Sequence record: PV357171.2
Direction: 5' to 3' (one strand)
Origin: a phage
Length of the DNA stretch: 64,000 bases
The notes under the pieces were generated by a model. It worked only from the letters and a program-made list of their open reading frames with translations. It was not told the DNA's origin and did no database searches. The translations under genes were made by a program, and so were the position numbers. This document shows, piece after piece, positions 4,096 to 53,426 of this stretch; the stretch's first letter is position 1; each line of letters opens with the position of its first letter.

Positions 4096-4107
4096 AACAA
4101 TTTATAT

Positions 4108-4340: not shown

Positions 4341-4568
4341 ATACATCTATGGCTCAAAGTGTAACGGTGCTATTTGATGCTCTTGGTAAGACTTCCCCGA
4401 CATGCGTTCGGGAGTAAGCTGCTAAGACTAGAGTAGAAGAGTTTCTGAGAGCCGCCACAATTGAAAATTCGTACTCGTCTTGAGCTGCGTGCAATAGGAG
4501 ATAACTTGATTAGTATTCTAGAACATGCTAATTGAGGATGGTTTCGCTAACCCTGCGAGTTTTCAATT

Positions 4569-4645
4569 GTGGCTATATCATAATTGGTTAATGATCCTGA
4601 TTGTGAATCAGGCCTATGTGGATTCGAATTCCACTAGCCACCCCA
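4569..4645 (+). tRNA. tRNA-His (anticodon GTG)
   Basis: Acceptor GTGGCTA/TAGCCAC, anticodon stem CCTGA/TCAGG, loop TTGTGAA, T-arm GTGGA-TTCGAAT-TCCAC, 3' CCCA. Confidence 0.75.
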
Positions 4646-4670
4646 AATTAACTTAAATAGGAAATAAAAT

Positions 4671-4871
4671 ATGGCTGATTTCTGCAAGCAATGCTCCCTT
4701 GATATGTGGGGCAGAGATACTGGTGACTTATCTGGTCTGATTACAGAAGCCGAAGTCAAAGAAGGTTATAGTGCAGTTGTGATTTGTGAAGGCTGCGGTG
4801 TTATCCGTGTAGACCACACCGGTAAGCGTTTGGAAGAACCAGTTCCAATTGCGCAAGTTCCTGTAGAATAA
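4671..4871 (+). CDS. hypothetical small protein with CxxC...CxxC pairs
   Basis: 66 aa; AGGAAA upstream of ATG; CKQC and CEGC pairs suggest a zinc ribbon. Confidence 0.5.
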   Translation: MADFCKQCSLDMWGRDTGDLSGLITEAEVKEGYSAVVICEGCGVIRVDHTGKRLEEPVPIAQVPVE

Positions 4872-4879
4872 AAAATTAT

Positions 4880-4955
4880 TGGAGTGTAGCTCAACTGGCA
4901 GAGCGACGGTTTCTGACACCGTAGGTTTCTAGTTCGATCCTAGACATTCCAGCCA
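4880..4955 (+). tRNA. tRNA-Gln (anticodon CTG)
   Basis: Acceptor TGGAGTG/CATTCCA (one G-U), anticodon stem ACGGT/ACCGT, loop TTCTGAC, T-arm TCTAG-TTCGATC-CTAGA, 3' GCCA. Confidence 0.65.
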
Positions 4956-4961
4956 AACAAT

Positions 4962-5039
4962 TGGGGATTAGCTTAGCTTGGCCTAAAGCTTCGGCCTTTG
5001 AAGTCGAGATCATTGGTTCAAATCCAATATCCCCTGCCA
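4962..5039 (+). tRNA. tRNA-Gln (anticodon TTG)
   Basis: Anticodon stem TCGGC/GTCGA, loop CTTTGAA, T-arm ATTGG-TTCAAAT-CCAAT, 3' GCCA; 1:72 unpaired. Confidence 0.6.
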
Positions 5040-5047
5040 AACAATAA

Positions 5048-5123
5048 GCGATTAAGCACACGGGTTGTGCCGCAGGCCTTCCAAGCCCCGCTGAGTAGGG
5101 TTCGATTCCCTCTAGCCGCTCCA
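5048..5123 (+). tRNA. tRNA, isotype uncertain (possibly Gly, anticodon TCC)
   Basis: Acceptor GCGATTA/TAGCCGC with one mismatch, T-loop TTCGATT, 3' TCCA; anticodon stem is weak. Confidence 0.5.
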
Positions 5124-5140
5124 ACTTTAAGGAAACATTT

Positions 5141-5362
5141 ATGCACGTTTTTGAGTTTCGTGATAAAAGTAACAATAAACGAGTTATTGTTATTGGAGAA
5201 ACATACCTAGCATACGAACAAACTGATGGCTCTGTTATCTTGAATGATGAGAAAGCAAATTTTAGCTTTTATCCAGAAGAACCTTATGAAGAGTTTCGTA
5301 CTAAGTTTCTTTTACCAGACTGGCTAGCAGTAGCCGAGCAACGAGAATCCGAAGATGGCTGA
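5141..5362 (+). CDS. hypothetical protein
   Basis: 73 aa; AAGGAAA Shine-Dalgarno before ATG. Confidence 0.5.
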   Translation: MHVFEFRDKSNNKRVIVIGETYLAYEQTDGSVILNDEKANFSFYPEEPYEEFRTKFLLPDWLAVAEQRESEDG

Positions 5363-5519
5363 TAACCTAAAATTAAGGGTTGACAAACAAAAGAAATACG
5401 TTGAGGTTGAATTAGGCGAAGAACGCTTAAAGCTAACTTTCGAGTTTCTTCAGCAGTTGGCTATGACAGTCATGACTGATAAGTCTCCTGTTATTGAAAA
5501 AGAAATCCCGTTGAAATAG
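5355..5519 (+). CDS. hypothetical small protein (54 aa)
   Basis: ATG overlapping the upstream stop; below ORF-track cutoff; no strong RBS. Confidence 0.3.
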   Translation: MADNLKLRVDKQKKYVEVELGEERLKLTFEFLQQLAMTVMTDKSPVIEKEIPLK

Positions 5520-5527
5520 GAAGCAAC

Positions 5528-5920
5528 ATGGAGTTTACTTGTTTAAATTGCGGAATCACAAAACCTAAAAGTAGGGGTTCCGCAGGTAAGTATTGTGGTG
5601 CTGCTTGTCAGCAGGAGTACCAGACAAAGCAAAAAGTATTAAAGTGGCTGGCAGGTGAAGAACCTGGTTATACTGGTAAAGCTGCACAATTAAAACCTTT
5701 TGTTAGGAAGTGGCTGTGGGATACTCGTGGTACTGCTTGTGAAGTATGTGGTTGGGATGGGAAACATCCAATTGACGGAGCAGTTTTAACTGAGGTAGAT
5801 CATATAGATGGAGATGCAACTAACTGTTCTCCAGAAAATCTAAAGATTCTCTGCCCTAACTGTCACTCTATGACACCTACGCATAGGGCCAGAAATAGAG
5901 TTTCAACAAGACAACGATAG
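5528..5920 (+). CDS. HNH endonuclease (classical HNH with zinc-binding cysteines)
   Basis: 130 aa; EVDHIDGDATNCSPENLKILCPNCH motif. Confidence 0.75.
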   Translation: MEFTCLNCGITKPKSRGSAGKYCGAACQQEYQTKQKVLKWLAGEEPGYTGKAAQLKPFVRKWLWDTRGTACEVCGWDGKHPIDGAVLTEVDHIDGDATNCSPENLKILCPNCHSMTPTHRARNRVSTRQR

Positions 5921-5994
5921 CTCTTAAAGCATTGCTGGCGATGCAACGGTCTTGTAAACCGTGGAACCGGGTTCGATTCCTGGTGGGAGCACCA
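5920..5994 (+). tRNA. tRNA-Thr (anticodon TGT)
   Basis: Acceptor GCTCTTA/TGGGAGC, D-stem GCAT/ATGC, anticodon stem ACGGT/ACCGT, loop CTTGTAA, T-loop TTCGATT, 3' ACCA. Confidence 0.7.
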
Positions 5995-6010
5995 AAATTA
6001 AAAAATTCAT

Positions 6011-6039
6011 TTGCCTTCTCTCTTATTTCTTGTTATAAT
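6011..6039 (+). promoter_or_regulatory. sigma70-type promoter (TTGCCT-N17-TATAAT) with conserved leader
   Basis: Same module as other early promoters: AAAAATTCATTTGC...TATAAT...ATAAATTAATGAGAGG...ATG. Confidence 0.6.
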
Positions 6040-6069
6040 ATTTATATAAATTAATGAGAGGGAAACCAA

Positions 6070-6363
6070 ATGAAACGTTATCTTTCTGTCGTGTTCCAAA
6101 CTGGTGGTCAACGCTACACTTATGAATTTCCTGAGTCCTGGAAAATTAAAGAAGGTGATCAAGTTGTTGTATTAACACCTCGTGAAGGCTTCAAAGTAGT
6201 AACGGTTAAACAAGTATTTCCAAAAGATCACGAACCATCTAAGGCTATTCAGTACAAGATGATTCATGGTCTGGTACGAAAAGTACCTAGAACAGAAGTC
6301 GAAGTAGATAAAACTGGGGAAGCTAAATACCAGTATACCTCTTACTTAGATGAAATGATGTAA
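6070..6363 (+). CDS. hypothetical protein
   Basis: 97 aa; GAGAGGGAAACC leader before ATG. Confidence 0.55.
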   Translation: MKRYLSVVFQTGGQRYTYEFPESWKIKEGDQVVVLTPREGFKVVTVKQVFPKDHEPSKAIQYKMIHGLVRKVPRTEVEVDKTGEAKYQYTSYLDEMM

Positions 6364-6364
6364 T

Positions 6365-6439
6365 GCTCTGATAGTTCAACAGGTTAGAACAGACGACCGA
6401 TAATCGTCAAATCTTGGTTCGATCCCAAGTCGGAGTACC
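6365..6439 (+). tRNA. tRNA-Ile (anticodon GAT)
   Basis: Acceptor GCTCTGA/TCGGAGT with wobbles, anticodon stem GACGA/TCGTC, loop CCGATAA, T-arm CTTGG-TTCGATC-CCAAG, 3' ACCA. Confidence 0.6.
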
Positions 6440-6446
6440 AAATTAT

Positions 6447-6522
6447 AGTTAGTTGGCAGAGTGGTTATGCACCTCCTTCATACGGAGCGACTACAGTGGT
6501 TCAAATCCACTACTAACTACCA
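6447..6522 (+). tRNA. tRNA with anticodon CAT (Met or lysidine-type Ile2)
   Basis: Acceptor AGTTAGT/ACTAACT, anticodon loop TTCATAC, T-arm AGTGG-TTCAAAT-CCACT, 3' ACCA. Confidence 0.65.
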
Positions 6523-9251: not shown

Positions 9252-9532
9252 TTGTTTCTCCATTTGCTCTTTGGTTCGTCATTGGATCTGTGGTTGCTAT
9301 TTACAGTCTAATAGATGATTTATTCATCTCCAAGAATAAAGATGTAATATTATACGTTATACATAAAACTCGACCGTTAGATCTGCCACCTCTTGATGAC
9401 AAAACATTACTCAGATGTGCTAGATCTGTGATATTTATTGTGGATATTCTTCTAGGCCCAACATCTGTGTTTTTCTTTTATAGAAAAACTCGTAATATGA
9501 AAAAATTTAAAGCTGAAATGCAGAATACTTAA
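9248..9532 (+). CDS. hypothetical membrane protein
   Basis: 94 aa; hydrophobic N-terminus; ATGA overlap with upstream stop. Confidence 0.5.
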   Translation: MIVSPFALWFVIGSVVAIYSLIDDLFISKNKDVILYVIHKTRPLDLPPLDDKTLLRCARSVIFIVDILLGPTSVFFFYRKTRNMKKFKAEMQNT

Positions 9533-9642
9533 AGAACTCGCGTAGGACCGAGTTGCGTCACCTGCAACTGTTACGGATAAGGGAGTCGTGCCCCTTAGTG
9601 CGGTAAGTGGTGAGGTGGCTGCTAGCCCTAACTGGAGATAAT

Positions 9643-9987
9643 ATGACTATATTACTAATTCTTGTTACAACTTGGTTTTTAATCGGTGCTGGATATGCAA
9701 TAGCTATTATTAGACATTTGGATGAACATTCTGCTGAATGGTTTGTTAAATATCTACGCATTGATGATCAAGAACAGAAGTTTAAAGATGAAAAGCAGAA
9801 AAAAGCAGTAAATAATATGACAGCCAAAGAATGCTTGTTCTACATGCGTATTGTAGGGTTCTTTGGACTATTAGTTGCTGGCCCAATTGGTTCTACCATT
9901 GCTCCATATAAAGAAACAGTTGCTGACATCAAGTTGTGGAGAAATGCAGGGGTACTACGCAAAGCTAGAGAAACTAATATTACATAA
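9643..9987 (+). CDS. hypothetical membrane protein
   Basis: Internal ATG after GGAG chosen as start; two hydrophobic segments. Confidence 0.45.
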   Translation: MTILLILVTTWFLIGAGYAIAIIRHLDEHSAEWFVKYLRIDDQEQKFKDEKQKKAVNNMTAKECLFYMRIVGFFGLLVAGPIGSTIAPYKETVADIKLWRNAGVLRKARETNIT

Positions 9988-42738: not shown

Positions 42739-43296
42739 ATGACTATTGATATTAATAAGCTGAAAGAAGAACTTGGTCTGGGTGATCTGGCTAAATCTCT
42801 GGAAGGTCTGACCGCTGCTCAGAAAGCTCAGGAAGCTGAACGTATGCGTAAAGAGCAGGAAGAAAAAGAACTGGCTCGTATGAATGACTTGGTTTCTAAA
42901 GCAGTTGGCGAAGATCGTCAGAAACTGGAACAAGCTCTGGAACTGGTTAAGTCCCTGGATGAAAAATCTAAGAAGAGCGCAGAACTGTTTGCACAGACTG
43001 TAGAAAAGCAGCAGGAAACTATTGTTGGTCTCCAGGACGAAATCAAATCTCTGCTGGCAGCTCGTGAAGGGCGTTCCTTCGTCGGTGATAGTGTGGCTAA
43101 AGCACTGTACGGTACTCAAGAAAACTTTGAAGACGAAGTGGAGAAACTGGTTCTTCTGTCCTACGTGATGGAAAAAGGTGTATTTGATACCGAACATGGT
43201 CAGAGACACTTGAAAGCTGTAAACCAGTCTTCTTCTGTAGAAGTTTCTAGTGAAAGCTATGAAACTATTTTCTCCCAGCGTATCATCCGTGACTGA
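42739..43296 (+). CDS. major capsid protein precursor, N-terminal part (scaffolding delta domain and start of N-arm)
   Basis: 185 aa coiled-coil-rich segment ending ...FSQRIIRD then stop; the frame continues in 43250..43972. Confidence 0.6.
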   Translation: MTIDINKLKEELGLGDLAKSLEGLTAAQKAQEAERMRKEQEEKELARMNDLVSKAVGEDRQKLEQALELVKSLDEKSKKSAELFAQTVEKQQETIVGLQDEIKSLLAAREGRSFVGDSVAKALYGTQENFEDEVEKLVLLSYVMEKGVFDTEHGQRHLKAVNQSSSVEVSSESYETIFSQRIIRD

Positions 43297-43972
43297 GGTT
43301 AAAGGTGCTCTGACTGAAATCCACTTCAGTACTTACAAACTGGCTGCTAAGTCCTTCATTACTGATGAAACTGAAGAAGATGCAATCTTCTCCCTGCTGC
43401 CGCTGCTGCGTAAACGTCTGATTGAAGCACACGCTGTTTCTATCGAAGAAGCGTTTATGACTGGTGATGGTACTGGTAAACCTAAAGGTCTATTGACTCT
43501 TGCTAGCGAAGATGGTGCTAAAGTTACTACTGAAGCTAAAGCTGATGGTTCTGTTCTGGTAACTGCTAAGACTATCTCTAAACTGCGTCGTAAACTGGGC
43601 CGTCATGGTTTGAAACTGTCCAAACTGGTACTGATTGTATCTATGGATGCTTACTACGATCTGCTGGAAGATGAAGAATGGCAGGATGTTGCTCAAGTTG
43701 GTAATGATGCTGTTAAACTGCAGGGTCAGGTTGGTCGTATTTATGGTCTGCCGGTTGTAGTTTCTGAATACTTCCCAGCTAAAGCGGTTGATAAAGAGTT
43801 CGCAGTTATTGTTTATAAAGATAACTTCGTAATGCCACGTCAGCGTGCTGTTACTGTTGAACGTGAGCGTCAAGCTGGTAAACAGCGTGATGCATACTAC
43901 GTTACTCAGCGTGTTAACCTGCAACGTTACTTTAGTAATGGCGTTGTATCTGGTGCTTACGCTGCATCTTAA
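43250..43972 (+). CDS. major capsid protein, HK97-fold C-terminal part (other frame)
   Basis: 240 aa; ...EEDAIFSLL...IEEAFMTGDG... pattern typical of HK97-fold capsid proteins. Confidence 0.65.
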   Translation: MKAMKLFSPSVSSVTEVKGALTEIHFSTYKLAAKSFITDETEEDAIFSLLPLLRKRLIEAHAVSIEEAFMTGDGTGKPKGLLTLASEDGAKVTTEAKADGSVLVTAKTISKLRRKLGRHGLKLSKLVLIVSMDAYYDLLEDEEWQDVAQVGNDAVKLQGQVGRIYGLPVVVSEYFPAKAVDKEFAVIVYKDNFVMPRQRAVTVERERQAGKQRDAYYVTQRVNLQRYFSNGVVSGAYAAS

Positions 43973-43993
43973 TACAGGCTTTTCAGCCGATAA

Positions 43994-44017
43994 GGAGAGC
44001 TTCGGCTCTCCTTTTTT
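43994..44017 (+). terminator. rho-independent terminator
   Basis: GGAGAGC-ttcg-GCTCTCC hairpin followed by TTTTTT. Confidence 0.6.
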
Positions 44018-44031
44018 ATTGGGAAAAATAA
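44017..44031 (+). promoter_or_regulatory. conserved late-gene leader motif TATTGGGAAAAATAAA
   Basis: Same motif recurs at 49025-49042 and a variant at 52737-52751, each between a terminator hairpin and a start codon. Confidence 0.4.
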
Positions 44032-44544
44032 ATGCAAATAATCACAGCTGAAGACTATAGATTATATGGCGGGTTAAAACGACCTGAACTAGAATCTGGA
44101 GTAGAGATGATGATTACTGCTGCCAATGCGCTGATTACTAGCCTTTTAGGTATGGATGATGCTGATGCGGTAGACCAGTTAATCAATACAAAACCTACTC
44201 GTAAAAAATACTTTTTAAGTTCTCCCTCGGCTACTTCAGTAACCAAAATGACTATTAACGACAAGGAGATAGATCCTGAACAGTATAAGTTGTATTCTGA
44301 TGGGGTTATACTTCTTAAATTTAACCCTCCAGAAGGTTATATGGACGTAGAATATACACAAGGTGGATTTAATCCAATTCCTGAAGATCTCAAACTTGCA
44401 GCATGTATGTTAGTAGATCATTGGCACAAACAGGATTATCGCCAAGCTAAAACAATTGGCGGAGAAACAGTTACTTTTAATAATACTAAGTCTGGTATTC
44501 CAGAGCATATTCGTACTATTATTGAAGTTTACAGGAGAGTATAA
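44032..44544 (+). CDS. head completion / head-tail connector protein, putative
   Basis: 170 aa; first gene after capsid; call by position. Confidence 0.4.
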   Translation: MQIITAEDYRLYGGLKRPELESGVEMMITAANALITSLLGMDDADAVDQLINTKPTRKKYFLSSPSATSVTKMTINDKEIDPEQYKLYSDGVILLKFNPPEGYMDVEYTQGGFNPIPEDLKLAACMLVDHWHKQDYRQAKTIGGETVTFNNTKSGIPEHIRTIIEVYRRV

Positions 44545-45311
44545 TGTCTCTTTCTGATTTAGCTACACAAATTATTAAGGAGCAGCTAGATAATGTTGGG
44601 CGTTCCGAGAACAATAAGAATACTGTTGTATATTCTGTTGAAACAGGACTGAAAGATCCTACTAGAGATGGTACTGTTGCTCAGGTATCTTTTAAATTCT
44701 CAAAACCTGTATCCCAAGACCTCCTTAATGTTAGGACCGCTTCTATTCTAAAAGCAGTTTCTTCTAGCTTAGATCTAACAGGAGACTTAGGTGCTTTAGA
44801 AAGTCTTATTCAAGCAACCGCCGGTAAAAAATCCTCTGTAGGTAAAAAACGTTCTACTGGTAGAGTTCAAGTAAACTTTGGGGATCCTAGAGATGTAGAA
44901 GATGGATATTCTGGTGCAGTAACAGGTGCTTCTGGTCGTTTTGTATCTAATAGCAATATGAAGGTTATTCTGGAGTTGGTTGCTAAAGAATACTTAATAA
45001 AGGATATGAAAAAAGCAGGAGCTCCACTTAAATTTAGAACAGGTCGTTTTGCAAATTCTCTGAAAATTAAGGATGTTATGCTTAGAGATGCAGAGACTAG
45101 TAAAGGTGCTCCTGAACTAAACGTGACATATAAGTATATGGTACGTCCATATTCTGTATTTAATCCAGCAGTATCTACATATCGAAGATTATCTCTACGA
45201 CCTTACCCAGGCGCTAGAAACCCCCAAAAACTTATTGGTGAGGCTATAGCAAAAGCTGCAAGAGACCTGATTCACTCTAGATATAAAATCAAGGTTAATC
45301 AAGGAACCTAA
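44544..45311 (+). CDS. tail completion / neck protein, putative
   Basis: 255 aa; TAATG coupling; call by position. Confidence 0.4.
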   Translation: MSLSDLATQIIKEQLDNVGRSENNKNTVVYSVETGLKDPTRDGTVAQVSFKFSKPVSQDLLNVRTASILKAVSSSLDLTGDLGALESLIQATAGKKSSVGKKRSTGRVQVNFGDPRDVEDGYSGAVTGASGRFVSNSNMKVILELVAKEYLIKDMKKAGAPLKFRTGRFANSLKIKDVMLRDAETSKGAPELNVTYKYMVRPYSVFNPAVSTYRRLSLRPYPGARNPQKLIGEAIAKAARDLIHSRYKIKVNQGT

Positions 45312-45314
45312 TAA

Positions 45315-45800
45315 ATGGATCATAGAACAAGTATTGCACAAGCTCTGGTTGACCGTATATCTAAACAGTTGGACGGTTCTCAACCCGACGAATATTTTAA
45401 TAACCTATATGGAAACGTTTCTCGTCAAACTTATAAATTTGAGGAAATACGAGAGTTTCCTTATGTGGCAGTTCATATCGGAACTGAAACTGGGCAGTAT
45501 CTTCCTTCGGGCCAACAGTGGATGTTTTTAGAACTTCCAATCCTGGTGTACGATAAAGAGAAAACAGACATTCAAGAGCAACTTGAAAAACTCGTAGCGG
45601 ATATAAAAACCGTTATTGACACAGGTGGAAATTTAGAATATACTGTTAGTAAACCTAATGGATCGACCTTCCCATGTGAGGCAACTGATATGATCATTAC
45701 ATCAGTTAGTACAGATGAGGGTCTACTGGCCCCATATGGTTTAGCAGAAATAAATGTAACAGTGAGGTATCAGCCTCCACGTAGGTCACTTCGCAGATAA
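45315..45800 (+). CDS. tail terminator protein, putative
   Basis: 161 aa directly upstream of the tail tube gene. Confidence 0.45.
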   Translation: MDHRTSIAQALVDRISKQLDGSQPDEYFNNLYGNVSRQTYKFEEIREFPYVAVHIGTETGQYLPSGQQWMFLELPILVYDKEKTDIQEQLEKLVADIKTVIDTGGNLEYTVSKPNGSTFPCEATDMIITSVSTDEGLLAPYGLAEINVTVRYQPPRRSLRR

Positions 45801-45826
45801 GTTACAGATTAGGAGAAAATAATTAA

Positions 45827-47224
45827 ATGTCTTTACAACTATTACGTAATACTCGAATCTTCGTGTCTACGGTTAAGACTGGTCATAATAAGACCAACAC
45901 GCAAGAGATTCTAGTTCAGGATGATATTTCTTGGGGTCAGGACAGTAACTCAACAGATATTACTGTTAATGAAGCTGGTCCGCGTCCAACTCGTGGTTCT
46001 AAACGTTTTAACGACTCTTTAAACGCGGCTGAGTGGAGTTTCTCTACTTATATCCTGCCATATAAAGATAAAACTACTAACAAACAGATTGTCCCTGACT
46101 ATATGTTATGGCATGCTCTTTCTAGTGGTAAAGCTCTTAACCTAGAAGGTGCTACAGGAGCACATAATAACGAAACCAATTTTATGGTTAACTTTAAAGA
46201 TAACGCGTACCACGAACTGGCAATGCTGCATATCTACATCCTGACTGACAAAGCATGGAGTTACATCGACTCTTGCCAGATCAACCAGGCAGAAGTTAAC
46301 GTTGATATTGAGGATATTGGTCGTGTAACTTGGTCAGGTAATGGTAACCAGCTTATTCCTTTGGATGAGCAACCATTTGACCCTGATACTGTAGGTATTG
46401 ATGATGAAACTTATATGACTATTCAGAGTTCTTATATCAAGAACAAGTTGACTATCCTGAAAATTAAGGATATGGATTCTGATAAGGCATATGATATCCC
46501 TATTACTGGGGGTACTTTCACCATTAATAACAATATTACGTACCTAACCCCGAATATTATGTCTCGTGTTAATATTCCAATTGGTTCTTTTACTGGTGCT
46601 TTTGAATTAACGGGTTCATTAACTGCTTATCTGAATGATAAATCTCTTGGTTCTATGGAGCTGTACAAAGATCTTATCAAGACTCTGAAGGTAGTTAACC
46701 GCTTCGAAATTGCTCTAGTACTTGGTGGTGAATACGATGAAGAACGTCCTGCTGCTATTCTGGTAGCTAAACAAGCACACGTTAATATTCCTACTATTGA
46801 AACTGATGATGTACTTGGTACTTCAGTAGAGTTTAAAGCTATTCCATCTGATCTGGATGCTGGTGATGAAGGTTACTTAGGCTTCTCTAGTAAATATACC
46901 AAAACAACTATTAATAACTTGATTGTTAATGGTGATGGTGCTACTAATGCTGTAACCGCAATTACTGTTAAATCTGCTGGTGATGCTACTACAGTAAACA
47001 ACTCGGCTACTCTTCAAATGAGTGTTGAAGTTACTCCTCCTTCCGCAAAGAATAAGGAAGTTACTTGGGCTATCACCGCCGGTGATGCAGCCACAATTGA
47101 TCCAGAATCTGGCCTATTAACTGCGGACACCACTAAAACTGGTGAAGTAACTGTAGAAGCTACTGCTAAAGATGGTTCTGGAGTTAAAGGTACTAAACAG
47201 ATTACTGTAGCAGCAGGTGGCTAA
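45827..47224 (+). CDS. major tail tube protein (pb6-like) with C-terminal Ig-like domain
   Basis: 465 aa; Thr/Gly-rich Ig-like C-terminus; size matches T5 pb6 as recalled. Confidence 0.65.
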   Translation: MSLQLLRNTRIFVSTVKTGHNKTNTQEILVQDDISWGQDSNSTDITVNEAGPRPTRGSKRFNDSLNAAEWSFSTYILPYKDKTTNKQIVPDYMLWHALSSGKALNLEGATGAHNNETNFMVNFKDNAYHELAMLHIYILTDKAWSYIDSCQINQAEVNVDIEDIGRVTWSGNGNQLIPLDEQPFDPDTVGIDDETYMTIQSSYIKNKLTILKIKDMDSDKAYDIPITGGTFTINNNITYLTPNIMSRVNIPIGSFTGAFELTGSLTAYLNDKSLGSMELYKDLIKTLKVVNRFEIALVLGGEYDEERPAAILVAKQAHVNIPTIETDDVLGTSVEFKAIPSDLDAGDEGYLGFSSKYTKTTINNLIVNGDGATNAVTAITVKSAGDATTVNNSATLQMSVEVTPPSAKNKEVTWAITAGDAATIDPESGLLTADTTKTGEVTVEATAKDGSGVKGTKQITVAAGG

Positions 47225-47228
47225 TTAA

Positions 47229-48128
47229 ATGTACTACTCTCTAATGAGAGAGTCAAAAGTTATAGTTGAGTATGATGGTAGGGCATTTCATTTTGATGCC
47301 CTATCAAACTATGATATACAGACTTCCTACGAGGAATTCAAGACTCTTCGTAGGACTGTTCATCGTAGAACTAACTATGCAGACTCTATTATAAATGCTC
47401 AAACCCCCTCTTCTATCTCTCTAGCAGTAAATTTCAGTAATACTCTTACTGAGGCTAACTTCTTTGAATGGTTAGGTTTTGATAGAAAAGGTAATACTTT
47501 CTTACTCCCGCTATATAGTAGTAATATTGAACCTATTATGTTCAATATCTATATAGTAAATAAAGATAATAACTGTGTATATTTTGAAAACTGTTATGTA
47601 TCTACAGTAGATTTTTCTTTAGATAAGAACATACCAATTCTTAATGTTGGTATTGAGTCTGGGAAATTCTCAGAAGTATCTACGTATAGAGAAGCAGCTT
47701 CTATTATACAGGGTGAAGTAATGTCTTACAGCCCAGTAATAGCTTCTACTAATGGCAGCATCTTACCCGGTCTTATTTCTGCCTCTTTATCTTTCCAGCA
47801 GCAGTGCTCCTGGAGAGAGGATAAGAGTGTTTTTGATATAAATAAAATTTATAATAATAAAAGAGCCTATGTAACTGAAATGAATGCTTCGGCAACCATT
47901 TCTCTGTACTACTTAAAACGTTTTGCAGGAGATATGGTTTATAATATAGAACCGGAGACAGATGTACCTTTAATGATAAGAAATAATAATATTTCTATAG
48001 ATTTTCCTTCAGCACGTATTACAAAACGCCTAGAGTTCTCAGATGTGTATAGAGTTGAGTGGGATATTATACCTATTGCTTCTTCAGACCCAGTGAGAAT
48101 AGATTTCTTTGGAGAAATTAAAAAATGA
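47229..48128 (+). CDS. tail protein (p140-like baseplate tube protein), putative
   Basis: 299 aa between tail tube and chaperone genes. Confidence 0.4.
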   Translation: MYYSLMRESKVIVEYDGRAFHFDALSNYDIQTSYEEFKTLRRTVHRRTNYADSIINAQTPSSISLAVNFSNTLTEANFFEWLGFDRKGNTFLLPLYSSNIEPIMFNIYIVNKDNNCVYFENCYVSTVDFSLDKNIPILNVGIESGKFSEVSTYREAASIIQGEVMSYSPVIASTNGSILPGLISASLSFQQQCSWREDKSVFDINKIYNNKRAYVTEMNASATISLYYLKRFAGDMVYNIEPETDVPLMIRNNNISIDFPSARITKRLEFSDVYRVEWDIIPIASSDPVRIDFFGEIKK

Positions 48129-48529
48129 TTAATTTAAAAGATATTACTCTTGATACTCGTACTATTACTCTTTCCTACCCAGGTATGCCGAACTTTAAAC
48201 TAGAACTTAACTATATGTCTCGTGCTACCTCTAAACGTGTTATTTCTTCTGCTAAACGCGATGAATGGGTTAATGGTACTTTGGTTCAGGTACAGGATGA
48301 TGATAAGTTCATTGAAGCCTTTGTTGACGCAGCTATTAAAGGTTGGACTGGTTTGACTGTAGGTGACGTTGAAAAACTGATGCTGATTGAAACAGACGCT
48401 GATCCTGCTACTGAAGTTCCATTTAGTCGTGATAATGCTGTAATGCTTATGCAGAACTCTGCTGCGTTTGATTCTTGGATCAACCAGACAGTGTTCCATT
48501 TAGACACTTTTCGTAGCTCAAAAGCGTAA
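48125..48529 (+). CDS. tail assembly chaperone, putative
   Basis: 134 aa immediately upstream of the tape measure region. Confidence 0.4.
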   Translation: MINLKDITLDTRTITLSYPGMPNFKLELNYMSRATSKRVISSAKRDEWVNGTLVQVQDDDKFIEAFVDAAIKGWTGLTVGDVEKLMLIETDADPATEVPFSRDNAVMLMQNSAAFDSWINQTVFHLDTFRSSKA

Positions 48530-48590
48530 AGAATTACTAGATGCTGTTGCTGACTTTGCTGATAAATGTATTAAAAGCTCAGCATCTAAA

Positions 48591-48959
48591 ATGACTAAAC
48601 AACAATATTTAATACTTTGTGAATCAATGGGTATAGAACCTGATCCTAAGGCTATGCCTGTTGAACTTGAAGACTTTCCACCTATTGTAGCTATTAGTAT
48701 GAATATTTATAATAGTCTAGTTGACTGTTTCATACCTGGCGACTTTCCTATATTTATAGGTAAAGACAAGGCTGCTTTAGGTGTTTTATTCGATATTTAT
48801 GGGATTACTGATCCCATAGAAAAAGAATTTGTTCTACACATTATCAATATATTTGATTCTAAAGCTGTAGACGCTGCACGTAAACGTGCTGAGAAGCATA
48901 AGCCGCAAAACGGTAGAATACCTAACGTTAAGCCACATGCTAAATCTCGAGCACGGTAA
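48591..48959 (+). CDS. tail assembly chaperone, putative
   Basis: 122 aa, basic C-terminus. Confidence 0.4.
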   Translation: MTKQQYLILCESMGIEPDPKAMPVELEDFPPIVAISMNIYNSLVDCFIPGDFPIFIGKDKAALGVLFDIYGITDPIEKEFVLHIINIFDSKAVDAARKRAEKHKPQNGRIPNVKPHAKSRAR

Positions 48960-48994
48960 AAGTTTCCTCCAATGGGCGTTCCACGATGAGGCTT

Positions 48995-49028
48995 GGCTCT
49001 GGGTGATTTGCCCAGAGCCTTTTTTATT
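48995..49028 (+). terminator. terminator-like hairpin
   Basis: GGCTCTGGG-tgatttg-CCCAGAGCC followed by TTTTTTATT. Confidence 0.55.
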
Positions 49029-49042
49029 GGGAAAAATAAAAT

Positions 49043-52000
49043 ATGACTGATAAGCTAATACGAGAATTACTAATAGACGTTAAACAGAAGGGGGCAACCC
49101 GTACTGCAAAGTCTATTGAAAACGTATCTGATGCATTAGAGAACGCTGCTGCTGCTTCTGAACTAACAAATGAACAGTTAGGTAAAATGCCCAAAACTCT
49201 ATACTCCATTGAGAGGGCAGCAGATAGAGCAGCGAAAAGTCTTACTAAAATGCAAGCTAGCAGAGGTATGCTTAGTATTACTAAATCTATTAATGATATA
49301 GGAGCTAAGTTAGATGATCTCGCTATTACAATGATTGAAGTAGCAGATAAATTAGAAATCGGATTTGATGGAGTTTCTAGATCTGTTAAAACAATGGGCA
49401 ATGATGTTGCAGCTGCAACAGAGAAAGTTCAAGATAGGCTGTATGATACTAATAGAGCCTTAGGTGGTACAGCTAGAGGTTTTAATGATACTACTGGTGC
49501 CGCTGGTAGAGCTTCTAGAGCTATCGGTAATACCTCTGGCTCAGCACGCGGTGCAACTCGTGATTTCGCGGCAATGGCTAAGATAGGGGGTGGTTTACCT
49601 ATCCTGTATGCTGCAATTGCATCTAATATATTTGTTCTTCAGTCCGCTTTTGAGGGCCTAAAAGTAGGTGATCAATTAAACAGACTGGAACATTTTGGCA
49701 CTATCGTTGGGACTATAACGGGTACACCAGTACAGACGTTAGCTCTGGCACTACAAAACGCTACTAACGGTGCTGTATCCTTTGAAGAAGCTATGAGACA
49801 AGCGTCTTCTGCTTCAGCTTATGGATTTGATAGTAAACAATTAGAACAGTTCGGACTAGTAGCCCGTCGTGCTGCTGCTGTTCTTGGTGTTGACATGACC
49901 GACGCACTTAACCGTGTAATTAAAGGCGTATCTAAGCAAGAAATAGAACTTCTAGACGAACTTGGTGTTACTATTCGCCTTAACGATGCGTATGCAAATT
50001 ATGTTAAACAGCTAAATGCTACCAGTACAGGCATTAAATATACTGTAGATAGCCTGACTACCTACCAGAGACAACAAGCATATGCAAATGAAGTTATAGC
50101 AGAATCTACTAGACGTTTCGGATACCTAGATGATGCTCTTAAGTCAACTTCTTGGGAGCTATTTGCTGCTAATGCTAACTCTGCCCTAAGAAGCCTACAA
50201 CAAAGCGCAGCAACATACTTAACCCCTGTTGTAGACACCATCAATGCTTTCTTATATCAAACTAAATCTTCTCAGATGAGGATTTCCGCAATGGCACGCA
50301 GTGCCTCTGCTAAAACCACTCCTACTGAAAATGTTACGGCTCTCATAGAAAACGCTGTAGGTGCACAAGAAGATCTAGATACTTACCTTAAAGAAAGTGA
50401 TGCTCGTGTTAAGAAAGCTCAAGAGATTAAACAGCAGTTAGATGATCTCAAGGCAAAACAAGCTGTTACTGCTCCAGTAGCTAACGCACTTACTGCTGTG
50501 GGCATTGGAGGCGATGAAAGTAATAAATTAGTAGTACAACTTACTAATGAACTGGCTCGTCAAAACCAAGAAATAGCAGAACGCGCTAAAACCGAAAAAG
50601 TTCTCAAACAAGCAGTGGAAGATACTGGGCAAGCCTTACTGCGTAATAGTAATCTAGCTAAGCAATTAGGAGCCAATATGCAGTATGCTGCCACTGCTAT
50701 TCCTGGAGAGACCGGGGTATTTAAGATTGATCCTAATAATCTTAAAGCGGCTGCAGAGGTACAGAAGAACTATGACCAGCTAAAGAAAAGCTCTAGTGAT
50801 ACTGCAAATAATATAAAAATGGCAGCTACTAACATTACCACTGCCAAAAAAGCATCAGGTGACTTAGTTAGCATTATAAAAGCAGTAGGAGATACTGCTA
50901 AGGTAACAGGGCAAAATACAGATACTCTAGTTAAAAATCTGAATCTAGGCTTTGAAAATCTAGATCAAATGAAGGCTGCGCAGAAAGGTCTATCAGAATA
51001 TGTAACTGCTATGGATAAGAATGAGCAGAATGCACTGGAAGTAGCTAAACGTAAAGACGAGGTTTATAACCAGACTAAAGACAAAGCTAAAGCGGAGGCA
51101 GCAGCTAGAGAGGTGCTACTACGTCAGCAACAGGAACAGCTCACAGCAGCAAAAGCACTACTGGCTGTTAATCCAAACGATCCAGAGGCTCTAAAGCAGG
51201 TAGCTAAGATAGAAACAGAGATTCTTAATACTAAAGCTCAGGGATTTGAGAACGCTAAGAAAACTAAAGATCTGACAGATAAAATTCTTGGTGTAGATCG
51301 TGAGATAGCTCTCCTGAATGACCGCACTATGACGAGTACTCAGTATCGTCTAGCACAATTAAGGCTAGAGCTACAATTAGAGCAGGAAAAAACGGAATTA
51401 TATTCTAAACAAGCGGATGGCCAAGCTAAAGCAGAACAGTCTAGACGTGCCCAAGCACAAATAAGTAGAGAACTGTGGGAAGCAGAGAAACAAGCTACTG
51501 CCTCGCATGTGTCAGCTCTCATGGATGCCTTAGAAGTTAACCAAACTCAGAGAAATGTCACTGGTCAATCCCAGATTCTTACTGAAAGGTTATCCATTCT
51601 GCAACAACAGCTGGAGTTGTCTAAAGGTAATACTGAAGAAGAAATTAAATATCGTAATGAGATTTATAAAACTTCAGCAGCCTTAGAACAGCTTAAAAAG
51701 CAAAGAGAGAGTCAGATGCAGCAACAGGTAGGATCTTCATTAGGTGCTGTGTACACTCCTACAACTGGTCTATCTGGGGCAGATAAAGATTTTGCTGATA
51801 TGCAGAATAAGATGGCTTCTTATGACCAGGCTATTTCTAAGCTGTCTGAGTTAAATTCCGAAGCAACAGCTGTAGGTCAAAGCCTTGGTAATTTAACTAA
51901 TGCTATGATTCATTTCTCACGGGGATCTCTAGATACTACGTCTATGATTGCGGCAGGTATGCAAGCTGTATCTTCCGTAATTCAGTATAGTACTAGCCAG

Positions 52001-52702
52001 CAGGTAAGTGCTATTGATGCAGCTATTGCAGCAGAGCAAAAACGTGATGGTAAATCCGAGGAGTCTAAAGCTAAACTCAAGAAACTGGAAGCGGAAAAGG
52101 TTAAGATCCAGCAGGATGCAGCTAAGAAGCAAATCATTATTCAGACGGCAGTAGCAGTAATGCAAGCGGCAACAGCTGTACCATACCCGTTCTCTATTCC
52201 TTTGATGGTGGCGGCAGGTTTGGCAGGTGCGTTGTCTCTTGCTCAAGCATCTTCTGCATCGAGTATGTCAAGTATTGCTGATTCTGGAGCGGATACAACA
52301 AGTTATTTAACCTTAGGAGAGCGTCAAAAGAATATAGATGTGTCCATGTCTGCTAATGCAGGTGAACTATCTTATATCCGAGGCGATAAAGGAATAGGCG
52401 GTGCTAACTCTTTCGTTCCTCGTGCTGAGGGTGGTAATATGTACCCAGGGGTTAGTTACCAAATGGGTGAACATGGTACAGAAGTAGTTACCCCTATGGT
52501 TCCTATGAAAGCTACACCTAATGATGAGCTAAAAACCTCATCTAACTCAACTTCAGGAAGACCTATCATCTTGAATATTAGTGCTATGGATGCTGCAAGT
52601 TTCAGAGAGTTTGCTTCTAGTAATAGTAGTGCTCTAAGAGACGCAGTAGAATTAGCTCTGAATGAGAACGGTGCTAGTCTGAAAACATTAGGAAATTCTT
52701 AA
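49043..52702 (+). CDS. tail tape measure protein (pb2-like)
   Basis: 1219 aa, long coiled-coil Ala/Gln-rich protein; length equals T5 pb2 as recalled. Confidence 0.85.
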   Translation: MTDKLIRELLIDVKQKGATRTAKSIENVSDALENAAAASELTNEQLGKMPKTLYSIERAADRAAKSLTKMQASRGMLSITKSINDIGAKLDDLAITMIEVADKLEIGFDGVSRSVKTMGNDVAAATEKVQDRLYDTNRALGGTARGFNDTTGAAGRASRAIGNTSGSARGATRDFAAMAKIGGGLPILYAAIASNIFVLQSAFEGLKVGDQLNRLEHFGTIVGTITGTPVQTLALALQNATNGAVSFEEAMRQASSASAYGFDSKQLEQFGLVARRAAAVLGVDMTDALNRVIKGVSKQEIELLDELGVTIRLNDAYANYVKQLNATSTGIKYTVDSLTTYQRQQAYANEVIAESTRRFGYLDDALKSTSWELFAANANSALRSLQQSAATYLTPVVDTINAFLYQTKSSQMRISAMARSASAKTTPTENVTALIENAVGAQEDLDTYLKESDARVKKAQEIKQQLDDLKAKQAVTAPVANALTAVGIGGDESNKLVVQLTNELARQNQEIAERAKTEKVLKQAVEDTGQALLRNSNLAKQLGANMQYAATAIPGETGVFKIDPNNLKAAAEVQKNYDQLKKSSSDTANNIKMAATNITTAKKASGDLVSIIKAVGDTAKVTGQNTDTLVKNLNLGFENLDQMKAAQKGLSEYVTAMDKNEQNALEVAKRKDEVYNQTKDKAKAEAAAREVLLRQQQEQLTAAKALLAVNPNDPEALKQVAKIETEILNTKAQGFENAKKTKDLTDKILGVDREIALLNDRTMTSTQYRLAQLRLELQLEQEKTELYSKQADGQAKAEQSRRAQAQISRELWEAEKQATASHVSALMDALEVNQTQRNVTGQSQILTERLSILQQQLELSKGNTEEEIKYRNEIYKTSAALEQLKKQRESQMQQQVGSSLGAVYTPTTGLSGADKDFADMQNKMASYDQAISKLSELNSEATAVGQSLGNLTNAMIHFSRGSLDTTSMIAAGMQAVSSVIQYSTSQQVSAIDAAIAAEQKRDGKSEESKAKLKKLEAEKVKIQQDAAKKQIIIQTAVAVMQAATAVPYPFSIPLMVAAGLAGALSLAQASSASSMSSIADSGADTTSYLTLGERQKNIDVSMSANAGELSYIRGDKGIGGANSFVPRAEGGNMYPGVSYQMGEHGTEVVTPMVPMKATPNDELKTSSNSTSGRPIILNISAMDAASFREFASSNSSALRDAVELALNENGASLKTLGNS

Positions 52703-52707
52703 AACTG

Positions 52708-52735
52708 GAGGAGGACTTTGAGTCCTCCTTTTCTT
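52708..52735 (+). terminator. terminator-like hairpin
   Basis: GGAGGACT-ttg-AGTCCTCC followed by TTTTCTTTAT. Confidence 0.5.
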
Positions 52736-52755
52736 TATGGAAAAATAAAAATTTC

Positions 52756-52784
52756 TTGATAAAATTTTCTAATACTATTATAAT
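52756..52784 (+). promoter_or_regulatory. sigma70-type promoter (TTGATA-N17-TATAAT)
   Basis: Hexamers with 17-bp spacer; followed by ATTAAAGAGGAGAAATTAACTATG leader. Confidence 0.5.
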
Positions 52785-52811
52785 ATTGTTATTAAAGAGG
52801 AGAAATTAACT

Positions 52812-53426
52812 ATGAGATTACCAGACCCATACACGAATCCAGAACTTTCAGGCTTAGGATTCGAAAGTGTTAACCTGATTGATAATGACCCAGTAATTCG
52901 TGATGAGTTACCAAATGGTAAAGTTAACGAAGTTAAGGTATCTGCTCAATACTGGGGTATAAATATTTCTTATCCAGAATTATTTCCAGATGAATATAGT
53001 GTTCTAGATGCTTTTATTCTAGAATACAAAAGGACTGGTGGTTATATAGATGTTATATTACCCCAATACGAAGCTTTTAGAGTTAGAGGTAATACTAGTC
53101 TAGTAAATATACCTGCTGGACAGAAGGGTTCTAATATAACTATGGATACAAAAGGGCTTCTTACAGGTACTCCAAAACCGGGGGATCTATTTAAGCTGTC
53201 TAGCCACCCAAAAGTATATAAAATAACATCATTTAACAAATCAGGTAATACATGGTCTATAAACTTATACCCTGATTTATTTATAACTACTACTGGAGCG
53301 GAGAAGCCAGTATTCAATGGAATACTATTTAGAACAAAACTCATGAATGGTGATGCTTTTGGATCTACACTAAATAATAACGGAACATACTCCAACATCT
53401 CATTAAATTTACGGGAAAGTCTATGA
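52812..53426 (+). CDS. distal tail protein (pb9-like)
   Basis: 204 aa directly after the tape measure gene; strong AAAGAGGAG Shine-Dalgarno. Confidence 0.6.
   Translation: MRLPDPYTNPELSGLGFESVNLIDNDPVIRDELPNGKVNEVKVSAQYWGINISYPELFPDEYSVLDAFILEYKRTGGYIDVILPQYEAFRVRGNTSLVNIPAGQKGSNITMDTKGLLTGTPKPGDLFKLSSHPKVYKITSFNKSGNTWSINLYPDLFITTTGAEKPVFNGILFRTKLMNGDAFGSTLNNNGTYSNISLNLRESL

Follow-up and report, generated by a model that had tools for sequence, protein, structure and literature searches.

The repeat before the adaptor and tape measure genes of a T5-like phage is probably a terminator tail joined to a weak ribosome-binding site

A 21-base element, TTTTTTATTGGGAAAAATAAA, is present in two exact copies (44012-44032 and 49020-49040) in the 64,000-nucleotide stretch of phage DNA analyzed here (PV357171.2, the window), with a GC-rich hairpin directly 5' and an ATG directly 3' of each copy. 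Very probably, this element consists of the U-tract of a terminator and the weak ribosome-binding region of the next gene, placed end to end; it would work as part of a leaky attenuator. The repeat would then not be a new late-gene signal, and the question of what it is would be mostly closed. All coordinates are those of the window, and the features described are on the + strand.

The sequence at 44012-44031 is TTTTTTATTGGGAAAAATAA, followed at 44032 by the ATG of a 170-aa ORF, and the sequence at 49020-49042 is TTTTTTATTGGGAAAAATAAAAT, followed at 49043 by the ATG of a 1219-aa ORF. Scanning the window with the 21-mer returns two exact matches, and still two when three mismatches are allowed, against an expectation of 0.01. 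The near-identical element that a preliminary description had reported 3' of a hairpin before these two genes is confirmed by direct reading of the DNA. The same description had placed a variant after the hairpin ahead of the promoter of the pb9 gene; the sequence at 52729-52751 is TTTTCTTTATGGAAAAATAAAAA, and a third copy of the 10-mer GGAAAAATAA is indeed found there, 3' of the hairpin at 52707-52731. This 10-mer has only three copies in the 64 kb (both strands), each just 3' of the hairpin of terminator T1, T2 or T3, and all three within the late region. A comparison of the third site with the second one reveals a 12-base match, GGAAAAATAAAA, improbable by chance according to a rough estimate from composition. 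A genome-wide motif scan had been proposed as a check, and among complete T5-like genomes from IMG/VR none has more than two copies of the 17-mer TTTATTGGGAAAAATAA, all of them at the T1/T2 junctions.

Judging from the sequence, the first nine bases of the element, UUUUUUAUU, would be the U-tract of a rho-independent terminator, with its hairpin directly 5' of them. The T-run had been regarded before as part of a new element; actually, it is the U-tract of a terminator whose hairpin had already been seen. At the first junction, the stop codon of the capsid gene (43970-43972) is separated from T1 by a small hairpin (GGCU-UUUC-AGCC by folding, 43977-43988), and a GGC...GCC hairpin occupies the same place in Sugarland, Stubb, PSTCR5, L030, and L067. 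The T1 hairpin, AA-GGAGAGC-UUCG-GCUCUCC-UU (43992-44013, with a fold of about -14.5 kcal/mol), is followed directly by its U-tract, TTTTTTATT (44012-44020), which forms the 5' half of the element. At the second junction, the stop codon of the chaperone gene (48957-48959) is followed by a conserved non-coding block (48963-48994), by the T2 hairpin GGCUCUGGG-UGAUUUG-CCCAGAGCC (48995-49019, fold of -19.1 kcal/mol), and by the U-tract of T2, again TTTTTTATT (49020-49028). Thus, the hairpins of T1 and T2 lie within 60-85 nt of the stop codon and have T6ATT immediately after them, and at all three sites, including T3, a GC-rich stem-loop with a U-rich tract is found 3' of a stop codon on the + strand.

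Comparison with relatives across Demerecviridae, whose junctions were reached by a profile search with the capsid alignment, suggests by compensatory changes that the hairpins are structures under selection. The T1 hairpin is identical in the relatives from Escherichia coli, Salmonella, Klebsiella, Proteus, and Providencia, and the stems of Vibrio and metagenomic relatives have different bases with the pairing kept; in L018, a G-C pair at the stem base is replaced by A-U. For the T1 junctions, the MAFFT alignment was out of structural register and RNAalifold returned nothing, so the stems were judged by per-lineage folds, which show 12 lineages with differing yet fully paired stems. The per-lineage folds of T2 likewise show 12 such lineages, and RNAalifold gives compensatory changes in five of the nine consensus pairs of the stem. 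The T-rich tail is present in 18 of the 18 lineages compared. For the Aeromonas record AhP_Mru1, which has a fragmented annotation, the junction sequence alone was used.

The two halves of the element can be separated. In T5 proper, the homology to the window ends after the T-tract of T2, TTTTTTATT, and a 753-nt ORF (T5.141) comes directly next; the pb2 gene of T5 has its own AGGAAAACATTAG-ATG 3' of the inserted ORF. Because the insertion falls exactly between TTTTTTATT and the GGG, the T-tract and the G-run with its A-rich continuation behave as separable parts. The T1/T2 junctions are also preferred landing sites for homing-endonuclease-like genes.

The remainder of the element would correspond to a translation-initiation region, with GGGAAA as a weak Shine-Dalgarno sequence, AAUAA(A) as an A-rich, unstructured spacer, and the AUG. 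For the adaptor gene, this region comprises the weak slot GGGAAA and the spacer AATAA (44021-44031), and for the tape measure gene, it comprises GGGAAA and the spacer AATAAAAT (49029-49042). In both, GGGA is purine-rich, complementary to the 16S rRNA, and within the 5-12 nt expected before a start codon, being 8 and 11 nt away. The preliminary description gave about 11 nt for this distance, which holds for the second site but not for the first one; the spacing between element and start is therefore not fixed. The start codons are supported by N-termini conserved across genera, by a p144 whose 170 residues are all resolved in the cryo-EM structure (PMC11313276), and by a pb2 of 1219 aa as annotated in T5. 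The predicted duplex with the 3' end of the 16S rRNA is -4.2 kcal/mol for both genes, compared with -5.4 to -9.3 kcal/mol for most late genes. At the second site, the 11-nt spacing of GGGA is marginal, and the AU-rich context and protein S1 may contribute more to initiation than pairing does.

The assignment of GGGAAA as a weak Shine-Dalgarno sequence follows from relatives that carry GGAGGT, GGAG, or AGGAGG in that slot. The orthologous slots at T1 are GGAGGT (JSF12), AGAGG (L030), GGAG (L067), GGGAG (L083), and AGGAGG (234P1), and those at T2 are AGGAG, GAGG, GGAG, and GGAGG. For example, the T1 junction of JSF12 reads TTTTTTATT-GGAGGT-AATAAA-ATG and the T2 junction of L067 reads TTTTTTATT-TGAGGT-AATAAA-ATG, where the window has TTTTTTATT-GGGAAA-AATAA-ATG. 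Close relatives differ in the length of the G-run (2-3 bases), the A-run (4-6), and the T-run (5-13), with a variation of 3 nt in the spacer; as far as it can be read from these sequences, this is the kind of variation that a ribosome-binding site would tolerate. The unusual translation-initiation leader suggested before comes near to this, with the G-run in Shine-Dalgarno position and GGAGG-type sequences replacing it in other genera; the U-tract half belongs to the terminator. The tail has practically no structure, and shuffling the spacer does not make its predicted fold any less stable. A weak AU hairpin (UUUUAUU/AAUAAAA) with the G-run in the loop was rejected, as the predicted energies are just -1.5 and -2.4 kcal/mol, a shuffled spacer equals or surpasses the native one in 76% and 33% of trials, and no fold is obtained for half of the lineages. 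Two alternative-frame ORFs (43845-44051 and 48886-49050) run through the terminators; in both, the element is translated as FLLGKI, and the stop codon comes shortly past the next ATG. They were considered as a frameshift or coupling device and discarded, their frames being broken by the indels of relatives and by the T5 insertion.

Pieces of the repeat are already known, since terminators are annotated in the public records of T5, BF23, and Sugarland (T1 as a putative rho-independent one), and in Sugarland a ribosome-binding site is annotated after each, GGGT at the adaptor site and GGA at the tape measure site. The same three records annotate the head-completion or adaptor protein gene (T5 p144, 170 aa, 44032-44544) and the tape measure protein gene (pb2, 1219 aa, 49043-52702). 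Rfam, with its curated families including antitermination RNAs, gives no match at the three junctions at the gathering threshold, nor over 43900-52900 at E <= 5. The literature search returned no usable transcript-end or transcriptome data for T5 and no Term-seq or RNA-seq for T5-like phages.

The third copy differs in its context. After the stop codon of the tape measure gene (52700-52702), the T3 hairpin (52707-52731, -13.8 kcal/mol), an annotated terminator in T5 and BF23, is followed by a T-rich tail, TTTTCTTTAT, up to 52738. Then, the variant copy GGAAAAATAAAAATTTC (52739-52755) forms an A/T-rich block abutting the -35 hexamer of the late promoter PG25 (core TTGATA-17-TATAAT, 52756-52784, 11/12 matches), which is a σ70 promoter conserved in all genera compared and precedes the distal tail protein gene pb9 (start at 52812, annotated in the BF23, T5, and Sugarland records). 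This block is inside the 'promoter P-G 25' feature of T5 (AY543070, 92013-92087, equivalent to 52736-52810 of the window). T5-like promoters have an AT-rich -43 block, AAAAATT (PMC3326045), and 52739-52755 matches it, the third copy being the only one with such an upstream block. Other terminator-to-promoter junctions of the window look similar to the one between T3 and PG25. In this context, the third copy is best read as the upstream A-rich (-43/UP-like) block of PG25, with a role other than that of the two identical copies. Being part of the annotated promoter, it would not be the same functional element as those at 44012 and 49020, which are not promoter upstream blocks because no core promoter lies downstream.

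That the element would be a late promoter or a late-transcription activator site, as had been proposed, is very improbable. The confinement of all three 10-mers to the late region, the location of the third copy inside an annotated late promoter, and a machine-predicted 'hypothetical late promoter' window of BF23 over the first intergenic region could suggest it. However, the scan detects no -35/-10 pair at 44012-44031 or 49020-49042, nor is there room for one with the ATG within 0-3 nt. Also, the late transcripts of T5 come from the σ70-type promoters PJ5 and PG25, with starts mapped by primer extension (PMC7472727). PJ5 (TTGACA-17-TATACT, 45616-45644, 11/12 matches, annotated as P-J5 in T5), inside the ORF 45315-45800 and 5' of the tail tube gene at 45827, was searched for the motif, which is absent from it. 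Moreover, canonical ribosome sites replace the G-run and A-run in relatives, and in T5 an inserted gene interrupts the element. The proposal is then abandoned for the two identical copies, the third one being in PG25.

The degree of conservation deserves a separate consideration. Across genera, identity amounts to 71-85% in the intergenic regions and to about 64-72% in the flanking coding DNA, and E. coli phages share an identical T1 and tail with the Providencia phage PSTCR5, the adaptor proteins having only ~30% identity. This exceeds what is usual for terminators and ribosome sites and could mean that there is an additional sequence-specific reader. In such a case, the tail would be an operator for a trans-acting RNA-binding factor that tunes read-through or translation of both low-copy genes, with the host proteins Hfq (U-tract and A-R-N run), CsrA (GGA), or S1, or else a phage translational repressor or antiterminator, as candidates. 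The unusually high conservation of the tail across genera, the identity of both sites within the genome, the overlap of GGA with the Shine-Dalgarno slot as read from the sequence, and a layout resembling that of the T4 gene 32 operator agree with this idea, and AAAAAUAAA fits an A-R-N repeat, GGA and A-R-N being presumably sites for such factors. Nonetheless, in other lineages only the T-tract is kept and GGGAAAAATAA gives way to canonical ribosome sites of unrelated sequence, the element is split at the second site in T5, homopolymer lengths drift among close relatives, no candidate factor was found, and unrelated genomes have acquired the same sequence on their own 3' of terminators. Regarding this last point, a 19-mer scan of bacterial genomes gave, among the 120 matches listed, 24 that follow a hairpin, three of these 24 with an ATG at once; the matches listed are scattered over AT-rich genomes of many phyla, with none being enterobacterial. 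Also, an unrelated phage contig (L106/L153) has the element before a tape-measure-like gene whose protein shows no homology to pb2, a case treated as convergence or a one-off. An operator is thus considered unlikely.

A similar judgment applies to the hairpin and AU-rich tail as mainly an RNA processing or stability module, in which RNase E would cut in the tail. The upstream mRNA would then end in a hairpin that protects it, and the new 5' end would allow expression of the downstream cistron or lead to its inactivation. RNase E sites are usually found in single-stranded, AU-rich stretches beside a stem-loop, and the tail is predicted to be single-stranded and adjoins a stable stem-loop, which would also be compatible with the terminator reading. 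Yet a cut in the tail would remove or damage the downstream ribosome site, and conservation of the full T6 run fits termination better than cleavage, making a processing module quite unlikely; none of the results points toward the antitermination or processing signal suggested before. The block at 48963-48994, TTTCCTCCAATGGGCGTTCCACGATGAGGCTT, occurs once in the window and is kept from the T5-likes to Vibrio phages with 1-nt indels between genera; these indels change the frame, so that coding potential was dismissed and the block is considered non-coding. RNAalifold finds no consensus helix in it, which also speaks against a CCUC/GAGG helix; nor, by inspection, can UUUCC or CCAAU pair with GGGAAA or AUUGG further 3' in Stubb, L070, or L083. 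The near-invariant hairpin and tail, together with the anti-Shine-Dalgarno-like UUUCCUCCA...UUCCACGAG of this block, could be cis-regulatory RNAs for a factor conserved throughout Demerecviridae, or a small RNA, although we regard this as rather improbable. If it were true, the factor would be a late antiterminator or a translational regulator coupling the synthesis of tape measure and adaptor to assembly; alternatively, the terminated 3' UTR would be a small RNA with a CCUCC seed targeting ribosome-binding sites. The remaining question is the likeness of the two copies, as a terminator tail followed by a weak ribosome site does not demand 21/21 identity of both sites in one genome, and it accounts for the third-site match GGAAAAATAAAA only as A-richness that fits both a ribosome-site spacer and a promoter upstream block. 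This identity could have no further function and derive from descent from an ancestral T6ATT-GGAGGT-AATAAA-ATG, or from occasional gene conversion between junctions 5 kb apart, an explanation that is possible but somewhat doubtful. The T1 tail of JSF12, TTTTTTATTGGAGGTAATAAAATG, and the T2 tail of L067, TTTTTTATTTGAGGTAATAAAATG, are nearly the same despite the different junction and lineage, and the two tails are alike within several lineages (e.g., L067 and L070). However, the two tails follow unrelated hairpins, and therefore any duplication would be old or limited to ~20 nt, a small length for homologous exchange; nor is there proof of concerted evolution, as orthologous similarity is as high as paralogous similarity.

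Based on the terminator and weak ribosome site, a mechanism can be proposed in which host RNA polymerase, transcribing the late operon, would stop in most passes after the capsid gene (T1) and after the tail-tube and chaperone genes (T2), and only a minority of polymerases would read through. Since neither the adaptor nor the tape measure gene has its own promoter, their cistrons would be present only on the read-through transcripts. On this RNA, ribosomes would have to load afresh on a weak, AU-rich site ~20 nt past the hairpin, and leaky termination combined with a weak ribosome site would give a low output suited to low-copy virion proteins. After T3, PG25 would restart transcription, with the A-rich run of the third copy as its upstream block. 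The virion contains 775 capsid subunits, 12 copies of p144, modelled by cryo-EM in all its 170 residues, and a tail tube of 40 trimeric rings that encloses the tape measure (PMC11313276). T1 and T2 coincide with the two steepest drops in virion copy number, from capsid (775) to adaptor (12) and from tail tube (120) to a few tape measure proteins. From this, we infer that T1 and T2 are leaky attenuators, including their partial termination, its efficiency, the requirement for read-through, and the setting of stoichiometry; the arrangement probably yields far less adaptor and tape measure protein than capsid and tail-tube protein.

The junction of a terminator with a weak ribosome site lies at the same two places throughout Demerecviridae, 3' of the capsid gene and 5' of the tape measure gene. 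These junctions would illustrate, as a clear case from nature, the way in which a phage that lacks a dedicated late polymerase could set large copy-number differences in one transcription unit, and they could serve phage engineering as compact, portable attenuator parts.

Finally, terminators acting as attenuators inside operons include T7 Tφ, which lies 3' of gene 10 (major capsid), and that of f1/M13 located 3' of gene VIII. As in these phages, a hairpin and U-tract directly follow the most abundant structural gene, and the downstream low-copy genes lack promoters. In the T5-type arrangement, this occurs twice, after the capsid gene and after the tail-tube and chaperone genes, with read-through here deduced from the layout; unlike T7 Tφ and f1/M13, the sequence is unusually conserved, and the U-tract abuts the ribosome site, making the junction unusually compact, as the next start codon is only 20-23 nt past the hairpin. 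The rpsU-dnaG-rpoD operon of E. coli has an internal terminator before dnaG and a poor dnaG ribosome site. The logic is alike, a partial terminator and a weak ribosome-binding site keeping one cistron low, although this is a host operon with unrelated sequences, and no homology is implied. In the translational operator of T4 gene 32, a pseudoknot bound cooperatively by gp32 is followed by an unstructured, AU-rich ribosome site. The form is similar, with a stable structure, a U/A-rich unstructured leader, and a weak GGA-type Shine-Dalgarno sequence; nonetheless, T5-type junctions have a terminator hairpin as their structure, with no sign of a binding protein. For the variant copy at 52739-52755, the closest counterpart is PG25 of T5 with its AT-rich -43 block (AY543070), to whose upstream region this copy belongs.

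The late (structural) genes of a T5-like phage (Tequintavirus) lie on the + strand of the window, in an order that agrees with the annotated BF23, T5 and Sugarland records, and the sequence is 96-98% identical to phage FFH_1 and BF23 over ~43700-44400. The element claimed between a hairpin and the ATG of the adaptor and tape measure genes is present exactly as described, being TTTTTTATTGGGAAAAATAA at 44012-44031 (+), followed by the ATG (44032) of the 170-aa head-completion/adaptor protein p144, and TTTTTTATTGGGAAAAATAAAAT at 49020-49042 (+), followed by the ATG (49043) of the 1219-aa tape measure protein pb2. Also, the variant placed behind the hairpin before the pb9 promoter is found, as TTTTCTTTATGGAAAAATAAAAA at 52729-52751 (+), with the core promoter at 52756 and the gene of the distal tail protein pb9 at 52812. 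The 21-mer has two exact matches in the window, and still two with up to three mismatches, for a chance expectation of 0.01, and three copies of the 10-mer GGAAAAATAA are present in the 64 kb, each directly behind a hairpin. Moreover, a motif scan of T5-like genomes in IMG/VR confines the 17-mer core to the same two late junctions, with at most two copies per complete genome. These match counts demonstrate that the repeat is real and not due to chance.

Each copy sits behind a strong hairpin, itself shortly 3' of a stop codon. The core of T1 (43994-44011, +; GGAGAGC-UUCG-GCUCUCC) follows the capsid stop codon at 43970-43972, T2 (48995-49019, +; GGCUCUGGG-UGAUUUG-CCCAGAGCC) that of the tail assembly chaperone at 48957-48959, and the hairpin T3 (52707-52731, +) that of the tape measure gene at 52700-52702. 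Given the strong hairpin immediately upstream, the element opens with the U-tract of a typical intrinsic terminator, the nine bases TTTTTTATT. Between this tract and the ATG lie GGGAAA plus AATAA(A), a space that fits a ribosome-binding site only. For both an intrinsic terminator and a Shine-Dalgarno site, every defining feature open to an in silico check is present. The reading as a translation leader proposed in the preliminary description holds for the part where GGGA occupies the Shine-Dalgarno slot, but not for the first nine bases, which are terminator. The predicted pairing with the 16S 3' end, over the 22 nt before the start codon, is weak for the adaptor and tape measure genes (-4.2 kcal/mol each) compared with most other late genes (-5.4 to -9.3 kcal/mol), and comparably weak for the low-copy baseplate hub gene at 53423 (CGGGAAAGTCT-ATG). 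By predicted folding, the tail of the element is essentially unstructured; the weak AU hairpin drawn there by folding programs was discarded, a shuffled spacer doing as well and half of the lineages missing it. Two conserved, covarying terminator hairpins with U-tracts are present, each joined to the weak, unstructured ribosome site of a promoterless gene.

Other structures at these junctions were considered. Alternative-frame ORFs run through T1 (43845..44051) and T2 (48886..49050), read the element as FLLGKI and end 5-17 nt past the next gene's ATG; they are regarded as coincidental because indels break these frames in relatives. A small hairpin, GGCU-UUUC-AGCC followed by GAUAA, is located at 43977-43988 between the capsid stop codon and T1, and among relatives, including those from Klebsiella, Proteus and Providencia, a GGC...GCC hairpin is retained at this position; in Stubb it overlaps the capsid stop codon.

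A comparison of the three junctions was made over ~60 related loci, including E. coli and Salmonella T5-likes, phages of Klebsiella (Sugarland), Proteus (Stubb) and Providencia (PSTCR5), several Vibrio groups, Aeromonas, and metagenomic contigs with a capsid protein 41-50% identical. The layout of hairpin, T-tract, G-rich block, short spacer and ATG is shared by all 18 distinct lineages at the capsid-to-adaptor junction and by 13 of 14 at the chaperone-to-tape-measure junction, the sole exception being phage 234P1, where a scripted search gave no qualifying hairpin at the latter. The distance from the extended hairpin end (flanking A-U pairs counted) to the ATG is mostly 16-26 nt. Stem sequences vary by lineage, with pairing retained in per-lineage folds; in the T2 of Sugarland three consecutive pairs are altered on both sides, and in the RNAalifold consensus the T2 stem is recovered, 5 of its 9 pairs carrying compensatory changes. 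In these sequences the G-run lies in the Shine-Dalgarno slot; the junction reads TTTTTTATT-GGAGGT-AATAAA-ATG at T1 of phage JSF12, TTTTTTATT-TGAGGT-AATAAA-ATG at T2 of locus L067, TTTTTTATT-AGAGGT-ATATA-ATG and TTTTTTATT-GGGAG-CAAAT-ATG at T1 of loci L030 and L083, and ...TTTT-AGGAGG-TAAGAA-ATG at T1 of 234P1. The T5-type element, TTTTTTATT-GGGAAA-AATAA-ATG at T1 of the window, is built in the same way, its Shine-Dalgarno sequence being degenerate. Close relatives differ mostly by homopolymer drift (T-run 5-13, G-run 2-3, A-run 4-6) and by 3 nt in the spacer, a change that is tolerable in a ribosome site.

In phage T5, homology to the window ends just past TTTTTTATT of T2 and picks up again at the pb2 ATG, and the gap holds a 753-nt ORF, T5.141, that has a ribosome site of its own; pb2 starts 4 nt before the end of T5.141 behind AGGAAAACATTAG. 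An indivisible signal would be destroyed by such an insertion, so the two halves of the element are separable. Extra ORFs are seen at both terminator junctions: T5.141 itself (T5 proper, L015 14996-15768) between the T2 U-tract and pb2, and others between the capsid stop codon and T1 in loci L018, L020 and L025 ~9284-9940 and in PQ002169, where the ORF is annotated as an endonuclease. The terminator is kept in every case. These ORFs may be putative homing-endonuclease genes, and the conserved terminator junctions seem to be preferred insertion sites.

Regarding a late promoter, also raised in the preliminary description, the promoter scan detected no σ70-like site between T1 or T2 and its ATG, and the late transcript origins of T5 mapped by primer extension are two σ70 promoters, PJ5 and PG25 (PMC7472727), so this reading of the two identical copies was abandoned. 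In the window, PJ5 (TTGACA-17-TATACT; 45616-45644, +) lies within ORF 45315..45800, upstream of the tail tube gene, and PG25 (TTGATA-17-TATAAT) at 52756-52784 (+). The variant copy (GGAAAAATAAAAATTTC; 52739-52755, +) adjoins the -35 hexamer of PG25 within the T5 feature 'promoter P-G 25', its position matches the AT-rich -43 block AAAAATT of T5-like promoters (PMC3326045), and similar terminator-to-promoter junctions exist in the window at 10062, 12927 and 15432; hence the third copy only resembles the other two and has a different role. Its sequence is not conserved in other genera, where the promoter alone is kept. One early-gene junction, at 20918, is of the terminator-to-ribosome-site type. 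The pb9 leader, ATTAAAGAGGAGAAATTAACTATGAGA, is found at 52790-52817 and appears to be the same sequence as 'RBSII', the ribosome site used in pDS/pQE expression vectors; if so, the PG25 transcription unit would be the source of this widely used part.

A terminator joined to a ribosome site requires neither the 21/21 identity between the two tails of a genome nor the 12-base match at the third site. Shared ancestry of the tails or occasional conversion possibly accounts for both, and an additional sequence-specific reader would be an improbable cause. The junctions are conserved above their neighbours, the intergenic DNA being 71-85% identical across genera versus 64-72% for coding DNA. T1 and its tail are identical in E. 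coli phages and PSTCR5, being the sole query stretch matched by megablast in the PSTCR5 genome, and the adaptor proteins are ~30% identical. Also, a block between the chaperone stop codon and T2 (TTTCCTCCAATGGGCGTTCCACGATGAGGCTT, 48963-48994), single-copy in the window, is conserved from T5-likes to Vibrio phages and includes CCUCC, which resembles an anti-Shine-Dalgarno sequence, and a nearly invariant UUCCACGAG; the block is non-coding, given the 1-nt indels among relatives, and gave no consensus helix in RNAalifold and no Rfam match. This block and the unusual junction conservation are a residual curiosity. An unrelated 42.6-kb phage contig of IMG/VR, 3300032254_000181 (L153 3095-3150) / 3300032255_000005 (L106 9500-9560), has a different hairpin, AAAGCCGCTTTTAAGCGGCTTT, then TTTTTTATTGGGAAAAATAAATGAC, directly before a tape-measure-like gene (639 aa); over 25 bases this sequence matches exactly the T2 tail found in some T5-likes. 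The 639-aa protein shows no homology to pb2, and the match represents either convergence or short-segment transfer.

The window has further features of its own. Against every relative compared (BF23, T5, phiAPCEc03, FFH_1 and others) it lacks ~60 nt at 40679/40680, ~57 nt at 41155 and ~143 nt at 43293/43294, the last splitting the major capsid gene into out-of-frame ORFs 42739..43296 and 43250..43972; the missing stretches reflect either a flaw in the assembly or sequence or a genome that is itself defective. The 14 tRNA genes clustered at 1332-6519 (+), ~40 kb upstream of the late genes, imply by this distance an assembly with the T5-type terminal repeat collapsed or permuted. The second chaperone ORF (48591..48959) has no Shine-Dalgarno sequence (-0.1 kcal/mol), and its frame, open from 48504, is shifted by +1 from that of ORF 48125..48529, which suggests a programmed frameshift of +1 or -2 near TCA AAA GCG TAA (48518-48529), whereas siphophage chaperone genes usually use a -1 shift.

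Termination at T1 and T2 would most likely be partial, and pb2, as well as p144 with the two genes after it, would be expressed from read-through transcripts only. Together, the leaky terminators and the weak ribosome sites would then keep the output of these proteins low, and PJ5 and PG25 would restore transcription for the tail tube and tip proteins, respectively. The U-tract may also help ribosomes to load by way of protein S1. The tape measure protein forms a trimer. In the virion, it is surrounded by 40 trimeric tail-tube rings (120 subunits), and there are 775 capsid subunits versus 12 of p144 (PMC11313276); the terminator positions fit these copy numbers.

Finally, the repeat is real and its explanation is ordinary, essentially already in public annotation: the T5 record AY543070 gives the T1, T2 and T3 hairpins as putative rho-independent terminators, together with P-J5 and P-G25, the BF23 record annotates the same hairpins as terminators, and that of Sugarland has at both junctions a terminator with a ribosome-binding site directly after. 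Terminators are located after gene 10 of T7 and after gene VIII of f1, and a terminator plus a poor ribosome site precedes dnaG in E. coli. By analogy, the terminators of the window would functionally resemble those of T7 and f1, and their combination with a weak ribosome site would resemble the arrangement before dnaG.
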